From Anaerolineae bacterium (GTDB lineage Bacteria; Chloroflexota; Anaerolineae; JACRMK01): a DNA stretch of 64,000 nucleotides. The stretch lies in contig JBBPZQ010000103.1 in NCBI GenBank assembly GCA_038198935.1, positions 25,649 to 89,648 of the forward strand, read 5' to 3'. Of this stretch, positions 56,667-57,098 are shown piece by piece. Below the pieces are notes generated by a model, which saw only the letters and a list, made by a program, of their open reading frames with translations, was not told the DNA's origin and did no database searches. Position 1 is the stretch's first letter. Each line of letters opens with the position of its first letter. The position numbers were made by a program, and so were the translations under genes.

Positions 56667-56852
56667 CTACTTTTTACTTTTCGCCTTCTTCGTTGTCTTC
56701 TCGTTCGGCAACTTCACCCCGCCCAGCAGCCACGCGATGATCGCCTTCTGCGCGTGCAGACGGTTCTCGGCTTGGTCGAACACGATCGAGTTCGGCGAAT
56801 CCATCACCTCATCGGTGATCTCTTCGCCGCGATGCGCGTGAGTACACAGTCC
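56667..56852 (-). pseudogene. duplicate of the ornithine carbamoyltransferase 3' end (last 61 codons)
   Basis: Translates to [60 protein letters not shown], against the arcB C-terminus [60 protein letters not shown]. Confidence 0.7.
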
Positions 56853-57098
56853 TCACGCAGCCATCTGCTCCAAGCGCACCGCAGGCCTGTCGGCATGCGT
56901 CGGTAAGCGCAGTGCGTTGGCGGGCAGCGTTACGACGGCAACCGTGTTGCCGAGCATGTCAAAGAATTCGACACTGTAGCCTGTCTCGCGTGCAGCGACA
57001 TTGTGACGCTCGACCACCGTTCCGACATCGCCAACGCGCAAGTGGTATTCGGGGACATCAAGCACGAGCACGACATCACTATAGAATTGAAAGTCCAA
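56853..57098 (-). CDS. small DUF4926-like protein
   Basis: 81 aa (MDFQFYSDVVLVLDVPEYHLRVGDVGTVVE...); lies exactly between the arcB stop and the arcB 3' fragment. Confidence 0.5.
   Translation of the reverse strand: MDFQFYSDVVLVLDVPEYHLRVGDVGTVVERHNVAARETGYSVEFFDMLGNTVAVVTLPANALRLPTHADRPAVRLEQMAA

Follow-up and report, generated by a model that had tools for sequence, protein, structure and literature searches.

Behind the gene for ornithine carbamoyltransferase (OTCase) in an Anaerolineae bacterium, a small gene of the DUF4926 family is followed by a second, displaced copy of the 3' end of the OTCase gene. The arrangement lies in a 64,000-nt stretch of contig JBBPZQ010000103.1 (hereafter the window, to whose positions all coordinates refer). 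The interval is best explained as a toxin-antitoxin cassette that has decayed, situated at a hot spot of recombination between the genes for OTCase and carbamate kinase. We think it rather probable that the cassette was imported by recombination anchored in the homology of the OTCase gene, together with a replacement end for this gene, and that the toxin was then lost.

The duplicated end of the OTCase gene

The OTCase open reading frame (ORF) runs on the minus strand from 58164 to 57100 (354 aa; TAA stop at 57102..57100), and from the conserved start M32 at 58071 the gene (57100..58071) is intact. Its product matches the Pfam families OTCace_N (E 1e-49) and OTCace (E 4e-57) and fits the general OTCase equivalog TIGR00658 of NCBIfam (403 bits). 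Because its conserved downstream neighbour is a carbamate kinase gene, the name arcB, used in a first-pass annotation made from the sequence alone, is an acceptable label. The frame is also open for 31 codons 5' of the conserved start (58071-58164), where it overlaps the end of a sugar-transferase gene (59584..58151), and this extension is probably not translated.

That annotation had placed the start of an 81-aa ORF 1 nt after the arcB stop, and it did so correctly: the DUF4926 gene (56853..57098, minus strand; TTG start, TGA stop at 56855..56853) begins at 57098, a single base (57099) behind the OTCase stop. It had further described a copy of the last 61 arcB codons, directly adjacent and in frame. 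The frame stands, since 61 codons are read from the DUF4926 TGA to a TAG (56669..56667), but the direct adjacency and the full-length homology do not: a spacer of 14 nt (56839..56852, minus strand) forms the right-hand cassette junction, and about 56 of the codons are homologous to OTCase, from A299/H300 of the 354-aa ORF. The spacer sequence (56852..56839) has homology neither to OTCase nor to the DNA found 3' of DUF4926 at other loci. Copy A of the repeat (57100..57271, minus strand) comprises the last ~56 codons and the stop of the working OTCase gene, and copy B (56667..56838, minus strand) is the displaced, promoter-less one with its own TAG. The likeness of the fragment to arcB is borne out by alignment, in which 57271..57129 and 56838..56696 share 88% identity over 143 nt without a gap (blastn E 1.7e-47), or 86% over 49 aa as protein (tblastn E 2e-22), with two longest identical runs of 23 nt each. 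The direct repeat measures ~172 nt when the last 15 codons are included; this Lys-rich tail is also free of gaps between the copies but far more diverged (18/45 nt). Copy B alone matches the C-terminal end of Pfam OTCace (E 1.7e-14), and there is no third copy of the OTCase end in the window. The insert between the two copies is 261 nt long and holds one ORF.

The contig is metagenome-derived, and an assembler could have joined the OTCase alleles of two strains into a false duplication. We regard such an artefact as highly improbable. An independent assembly (L001, Logan SRR24807095) is 100% identical to 57915..56760, a segment with OTCase, DUF4926 and the initial 79 nt of the fragment, and since it spans both cassette junctions identically, these are not artefacts of one assembly, even if the Logan contig stops within the repeat. 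Moreover, the sequence passes abruptly from the DUF4926 stop and the 14-nt spacer into OTCase codon 299, with no switch at a shared word, and numerous unrelated samples show the same architecture, among them 15 contigs from a single Armatimonadota population.

A putative antitoxin gene without its toxin

The DUF4926-like identity assigned to the small gene at the first pass is confirmed by PF16277, which the protein matches at profile positions 2-56 of 57 with 64.2 bits (cut-off 29.1; E 7e-18). All 12 invariant DUF4926 columns are present in it (so by construction), and at the 40 strongly conserved columns it has 1 deviation, which is usual for the family. The protein has 1695 database homologues, from Chloroflexota, cyanobacteria and Planctomycetota, many of them exactly 81 aa long and 70–83% identical. 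Its AlphaFold model (pLDDT 87) is a small beta-barrel with a conserved C-terminal tail of low confidence, and a fold search with this model returned only generic SH3/KOW/chromo-like barrels at E ≥ 0.05 (best 0.056).

DUF6883 proteins have been assigned to the BECR-Tox3 ribonuclease toxins, for which DUF4926 has been proposed as the immunity partner from gene neighbourhood (bioRxiv 10.64898/2026.08.28.747851). Among 76 metagenomic DUF4926 loci with enough upstream DNA, a DUF6883 gene lies 8–15 nt upstream of DUF4926 on the same strand in 64, whereas 12 have no toxin gene; in several loci the toxin gene is truncated. The standard module is a tightly trimmed pair, a 110-aa DUF6883 gene and then an 81-aa DUF4926 gene. 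Judged by its sequence, the window gene would be the antitoxin or immunity half of such a module. Like the members of complete pairs, to which it is 70–83% identical, it is a full-length, typical DUF4926 gene; unlike them it has no DUF6883 partner, starts with TTG, lacks a ribosome-binding site of its own and is joined to the end of a host operon. No DUF6883 gene was found in the window by tblastn with three toxins, the best match (E 0.09) being in an FtsK-like gene. A weak toxin-like match at 16464-16775 was rejected because it falls in the FtsK-like gene and on the other strand.

The DNA similarity to complete modules starts exactly at the antitoxin start codon. The ATG of the modules has become TTG in the window, their GGAGG-type ribosome-binding site is replaced by the last OTCase codons, and immediately upstream stands the OTCase 3' end, not a toxin gene. 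The DUF4926 gene is otherwise intact. No promoter-like or terminator-like site was detected between it and OTCase; since it has neither a promoter nor a ribosome-binding site of its own, nor a terminator preceding it, its expression, if any, would depend on co-transcription with OTCase and translational coupling. An orphan antitoxin of this kind would be unable to addict the cell, and the idea that it may neutralise incoming DUF6883 toxins is speculative. Toxin loss has taken another form at locus L105 (2983-3240), where DUF6883 is deleted in frame and its first six codons (MKLPNR) are joined to FQLYSD... of DUF4926, so that the orphan antitoxin keeps the start signals of the toxin.

Gene order at the OTCase/carbamate kinase junction

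The first-pass annotation had called for a comparison with relatives that lack the cassette, and such relatives exist. Of at least 120 OTCase homologues, 22 are 75–87% identical to the window protein. In the relatives with OTCase 79–87% identical, the gene order is Bac_transf sugar transferase, OTCase and AA-kinase-family gene. In L175, the OTCase of which is 87% identical, 5 nt separate the OTCase stop from the kinase start, there is a single OTCase 3' end and DUF4926 is absent. L172, L173 and L174 likewise have one OTCase 3' end each; all four relatives are distant (79–87% aa) and not of the same species. The same junction holds two unassigned small ORFs in L172, and in L174 (4978-6290) a 112-aa ORF and a PIN-domain gene, flanked by a 27/27-identical duplicate of the kinase 5' end. 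In the window, ~7.2 kb lie between the OTCase stop and the kinase gene. Because the relatives have the two genes adjacent or separated by other inserts, the window arrangement is derived, not ancestral.

The kinase gene of the window (49829..48885, minus strand) is of the arcC type and 83% identical to the L175 neighbour; it matches TIGR00746 with 378.6 bits (cut-off 358) and is not an acetylglutamate kinase (NCBIfam). The DNA between it and OTCase has three parts. Behind the DUF4926 gene and copy B comes a type III restriction-modification island (50695..56584, minus strand), which comprises mod (56584..54476), a DUF3800 gene (54479..53697) and res (53361..50695), with PADLOC matches to MTase_III (E 2e-110), REase_III (E 3e-26) and DUF3800_VII (E 3e-24) and matches in Pfam as well. 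Its G+C content is 0.46–0.60, against 0.61–0.64 in the flanks. The third part is a cassette flanked by a duplicated kinase 5' end: a displaced copy of the first 11 kinase codons (50643..50676, minus strand) is identical at 32/34 nt to 49830..49797, both differences being non-synonymous. Between the two copies lie a frameshifted DUF3800-like gene (50581..49942, minus strand; Pfam DUF3800 21.1 bits, cut-off 21) and a DUF3800-III RNA motif (49864-49984, plus strand; Rfam RF02962, 55.8 bits, gathering score 43.8). On these gene orders, the OTCase/kinase junction is a hot spot for cassette insertion with gene-end duplication.

The island fits exactly into the space between the displaced end of OTCase and the displaced start of the kinase gene, and it has no flanking repeat of its own. 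Copy B and mod are separated by an 82-nt spacer (56585..56666, minus strand) that contains a hairpin with a 12-bp stem and then UUUG; its RNA fold (-30.7 kcal/mol, z = -1.3) is not significant and no consensus terminator was found in it. This spacer may act as a weak terminator, or it may represent the left edge of the island. In the cassette interval, nothing was found by scans for Rfam families, for promoters and terminators or for tRNA genes.

Duplicated gene ends around related modules

The flanks of the module were compared in 80 metagenomic loci of DUF4926 homologues, in which 54 modules were testable, and 169 segments of equal size shifted along the same loci served as controls. Direct repeats flank 12 of the 54 modules (22%), against 3 of the 169 controls (1.8%; Fisher p 3.6e-6). 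Of the 12, L126, L153 and probably L123 should not be counted, as their repeats are tandem arrays of 27/54-nt units rich in GCGATCGC and not target duplications. About eight independent true cases remain (two pairs represent the same locus sampled twice). The repeats are imperfect, with 73–93% identity over 31–147 nt at the other loci, and no target duplication around these modules exceeds 93.5% identity. The upstream copy ends 0–50 nt before the toxin start (as much as 177 nt in the case of L094 and L165), and 0–37 nt separate the antitoxin stop from the downstream copy. No conserved end motifs were seen at the left or right cassette junctions. Six close DUF4926 homologues (P0003, P0004, P0005, P0010, P0011 and P0032) have neither an OTCase neighbour nor flanking repeats.

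The host genes whose ends form the repeats are unrelated from locus to locus. At L118 it is an oligogalacturonide lyase gene, of which the last ~48 codons are duplicated (147 nt, 90%; spacer 29 nt), at L170 an RNR-like gene with its last 28 codons (102 nt, 91%) and at L130 a gltD-like gene with its first 17 codons. At L156 (341-1273) there are tandem cassettes, and in front of each lies one copy of the same 3' end of a methyltransferase-like gene. DUF2283 and DUF4926 make up the first cassette; the second opens with DUF6883, whose ATG overlaps with the stop of the displaced end. In 4 of 5 distinct called-gene contexts the module has the orientation of its host gene, with gaps of 0–79 nt, and at some loci the start codon of the toxin lies against the host stop or overlaps it. 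This closeness of co-oriented host genes suggests that the modules are expressed from the transcript of the host gene. No empty site was found at the L118 lyase: the cassette is present in 8/8 contexts shown, out of 15 contigs with a 99%-identical lyase, and the listed full-length members of the lyase cluster all share the C-terminus of the upstream copy. In the Armatimonadota strains L189, L192 and L193 (4326 or 2408 onward), the displaced lyase fragment is fused in frame to a 722-aa glycoside-hydrolase-like gene, resulting in a product of 810 aa.

The insertion of a cassette near the 3' end of arcB, as the first-pass annotation had proposed, is therefore supported both by synteny and by similar modules elsewhere that are flanked by duplicated host-gene ends. 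Many integrative elements target and regenerate gene 3' ends, and the junction is an insertion hot spot with 7.2 kb of foreign-looking DNA; the interval might thus be the remnant of an island that carried the OTCase 3' end in its attachment site and was deleted down to DUF4926, the two copies being attL and attR. An intact gene with a substituted 3' end and a displaced partial copy downstream is indeed what such islands leave. We nevertheless consider this origin very unlikely. No integrase or transposase domain was found in the ORFs scanned between OTCase and the kinase gene, there is no tRNA gene in the window, and only one ORF is left in the trimmed insert between the repeats. Furthermore, the other module loci use different host genes and repeat lengths (31–147 nt), and with targets and lengths so varied one site-specific recombinase does not fit.

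Imported gene end or duplication in place

If the OTCase end had been duplicated in place, with one copy decaying neutrally and the other constrained, ~34% of the differences between the copies should be synonymous. In the 40-codon core of the window repeat, 9 of the 13 differences between copies A and B are synonymous (pN/pS 0.16, p 0.016 against this null). With five loci pooled the figure is 27 of 36 (pN/pS 0.10, binomial p ~4e-7); L094 was omitted from the codon analysis owing to an indel between its copies and a truncated host gene. The synonymous difference is alike in all five coding loci (0.24–0.30). In addition, the divergence between the window copies is uneven, 18 of 45 sites (40%) in the tail against 13 of 120 (11%) in the core (Fisher p 7e-5), a contrast bigger than in-place duplication predicts (p 0.004–0.012). 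Where the copies differ, both hold residues of the OTCase family consensus. The divergence pattern seems to fit constraint acting on both copies. As the differences are mostly synonymous and the divergence tracks functional constraint, one copy would have come from a diverged relative and not from duplication in place. The first-pass annotation had left it open whether the replacement gene end was carried or regenerated; the synonymous bias and the lower divergence of the core (11%) than of the tail (40%) favour the former.

The competing course is insertion in place with long target duplication, in which a promoter-less cassette entered at widely staggered breaks or by replication template switching, ~172 nt of the OTCase end were copied to both sides, and the copies then diverged, possibly with allelic replacement. 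Insertions of this kind are documented for restriction-modification systems of types I–IV; the repeats measure 46 to ~420 bp, mobility genes are absent, and a tie to DNA breakage has been proposed (Furuta, Abe & Kobayashi 2010, PMC2853133; review PMC3874152). The junction itself offers near-identical kinase 5'-end duplicates around other cassettes (32/34 in the window, 27/27 in L174). We hold this course to be rather unlikely, in view of the synonymous excess (9/13 and, pooled, 27/36) and the constraint-tracking divergence, and none of the DUF6883-DUF4926 modules examined is flanked by a repeat pair so nearly identical as to be young. Perfect direct repeats of 100–170 nt that lie 430–800 nt apart would be deletion-prone, which also counts against it.

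Several points weigh against import as the source of the second gene end. No close relative with an empty site was found, the best OTCase match among 185,579 species genomes being 56%. The four relatives compared for the origin of the copies have 72–88% nt identity; against L172–L175, copies A and B show 80–88%, which falls inside the 64–88% seen along the gene and favours neither as the native one. The statistics of the window by itself are modest (p ~0.01–0.02), and the strong test pools other loci. The same synonymous bias would result from in-place duplication if an allele of a relative later replaced the working copy, and a GC-to-AT mutation bias at GC-rich third positions would lift the neutral synonymous expectation somewhat. 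Finally, the kinase 5'-end duplicates of the window and L174 look young and made in place, and being near-identical they indicate that in-place duplication operates at this hot spot.

A further reading of the same data is that the fragment itself is functional, as a silent reservoir for gene conversion of the OTCase C-terminus, as a regulatory element or by read-through of the DUF4926 stop. It lies in frame with the DUF4926 TGA and keeps OTCase consensus residues, and the synonymous bias could in principle reflect ongoing selection on it. Yet the frame relation is not conserved elsewhere (at L118 the spacer has 29 nt), fragments of unrelated genes stand at the other loci, some of them with indels or frameshifts (the L118 tail, L094), and variation of the OTCase C-terminus has no known role. 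We find a function of this sort scarcely credible.

Proposed course of events and comparison with known systems

In the sequence of events that import implies, the module would most likely have arrived horizontally on DNA that also carried the 3' end of the donor's OTCase gene. Host homologous recombination anchored in OTCase would then have joined the imported end and the cassette to the resident gene, either through a single crossover with a circularised piece or, in the manner put forward for effector-immunity displacement (PMC5361080), through homologous crossover at the left side and illegitimate joining at the right. By either route OTCase would be kept intact and the other copy of its end would be stranded as a dead fragment 14 nt behind the cassette. 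The two host genes being only 5 nt apart, hardly any product could have both of them intact without a duplicated gene end, and since the copies would be ~12% diverged from the start and recombine poorly, the duplicated structure could persist. The toxin would afterwards have been deleted, or would already have been missing in the donor; the lost stretch would begin right behind the OTCase stop and end with the A of the antitoxin ATG.

Extending this course to the family, we propose tentatively, with more doubt than confidence, that DUF6883-DUF4926 modules, and perhaps other small toxin-antitoxin or defence cassettes, are recombinase-less 'gene-end hitchhikers'. Such cassettes, many of them promoter-less, would move between related genomes with a 30–170-nt piece of the host gene next to which they lie, on either side of it, and would use this piece as homology arm for the recombination machinery of the host. 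They would thereby rebuild the host gene and leave behind an end copy that is diverged from birth, and it is this divergence that would prevent renewed loss of the cassette by looping out.

For restriction-modification systems, insertion with long target duplication was reportedly described by Nobusato et al. in 2000, and the window shares much with it. The cargo is a small, self-contained 'selfish' unit with no transposase or integrase; duplications in the published cases often overlap a gene end, as here; and a restriction-modification island and other cassettes occupy the same hot spot. By the criteria of Furuta et al., the flanking direct repeat is longer than 30 bp (143 nt ungapped) and single-copy in relatives without the insert (in L175 the OTCase end abuts the kinase gene), and the insert is below 20 kb (261 nt) and free of mobile-element genes. 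Unlike in those systems, no R and M genes lie within the repeat pair, the adjacent island being outside, and the insert is half a toxin-antitoxin module. The DNA breakage proposed for the restriction-modification cases is inapplicable because the toxin partner here is an RNase. The repeats are also less alike, 88% here and 73–93% at the other module loci against mostly 93–100% in the published tables, and the bias of their differences towards synonymous sites points to import. Within the literature searched there is no report of long target duplication for classical toxin-antitoxin modules.

A second parallel is found at rhs, cdi and type VI effector-immunity loci, where C-terminal displacement and orphan modules have been explained by homology-facilitated illegitimate recombination (Kirchberger et al. 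2017, PMC5361080). There too an incoming piece with homology to the upstream gene and with new downstream genes replaces the end of a gene, the former end is displaced downstream as an orphan with a conserved stretch still in it (copy B in our case), repeated rounds lead to tandem arrays (as at L156) and orphan immunity genes are left. The host in the window is by contrast the housekeeping gene OTCase, both ends are orthologous OTCase C-termini with no new toxin domain, and the cargo is a separate two-gene module outside the host gene. The islands bounded by attL and attR, with which the window shares the substituted and the displaced gene end, differ in that here there is no recombinase, the insert is one ORF and the targets vary by locus.

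Orphan antitoxins can act as anti-addiction or immunity genes. The intact antitoxin gene of the window, kept without its toxin, resembles them, and it may simply be a recent remnant.

Other repeats in the window

A G+C-rich element, CCTCACCCCnnnCCCCTCTCCC(GCTGGGCGAGGGGG), occurs three times in the mod gene (55207-55287, 56254-56289), with two copies as an inverted pair, where 0 are expected by chance. It is read through in frame, and a similar peptide is present in the res protein; the element looks like a miniature repeat tolerated within coding sequence. Between the DUF3800_VII gene and res there is a 44-nt direct repeat with 84% identity (53492-53535 and 53668-53711, 176 nt apart); it has no Rfam match and could be an RNA element tied to this class of DUF3800. 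Elsewhere in the window, an 80-nt direct repeat, 78% identical and with an internal G+C-rich hairpin, is found at 21249-21328 and 23201-23280 (1952 nt apart), and six copies of a 42-nt unit, 62–76% identical and spaced by ~120–140 nt, occupy 36422-37231. The latter probably represent a repeated protein domain and not a DNA element.

Meaning for the spread of small cassettes

Taken by itself, the window is an instance of a decayed cassette of modest importance. For annotation, it shows that a short in-frame copy of a gene end beside a small ORF can be the mark of a cassette insertion and is not to be called a gene. It shows as well that three different cassettes, of the selfish or the defence type, can gather at a 5-nt junction of two metabolic genes without breaking either gene. 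Little is understood of how toxin-antitoxin modules of the chromosome spread when they have no transposase or integrase. In the window and about eight comparable loci, the modules are bounded by duplicated host gene ends, the copies of which differ in the way working orthologues do. This points to a route in which the recombination of the host brings in a cassette along with a replacement end for the gene. The signature of long target duplication, moreover, is not tied to DNA-cutting cargo. If the modules are indeed gene-end hitchhikers, this would provide a concrete route by which they move without mobility genes, and long target duplication would reach beyond restriction-modification systems, arising there by a different mechanism.

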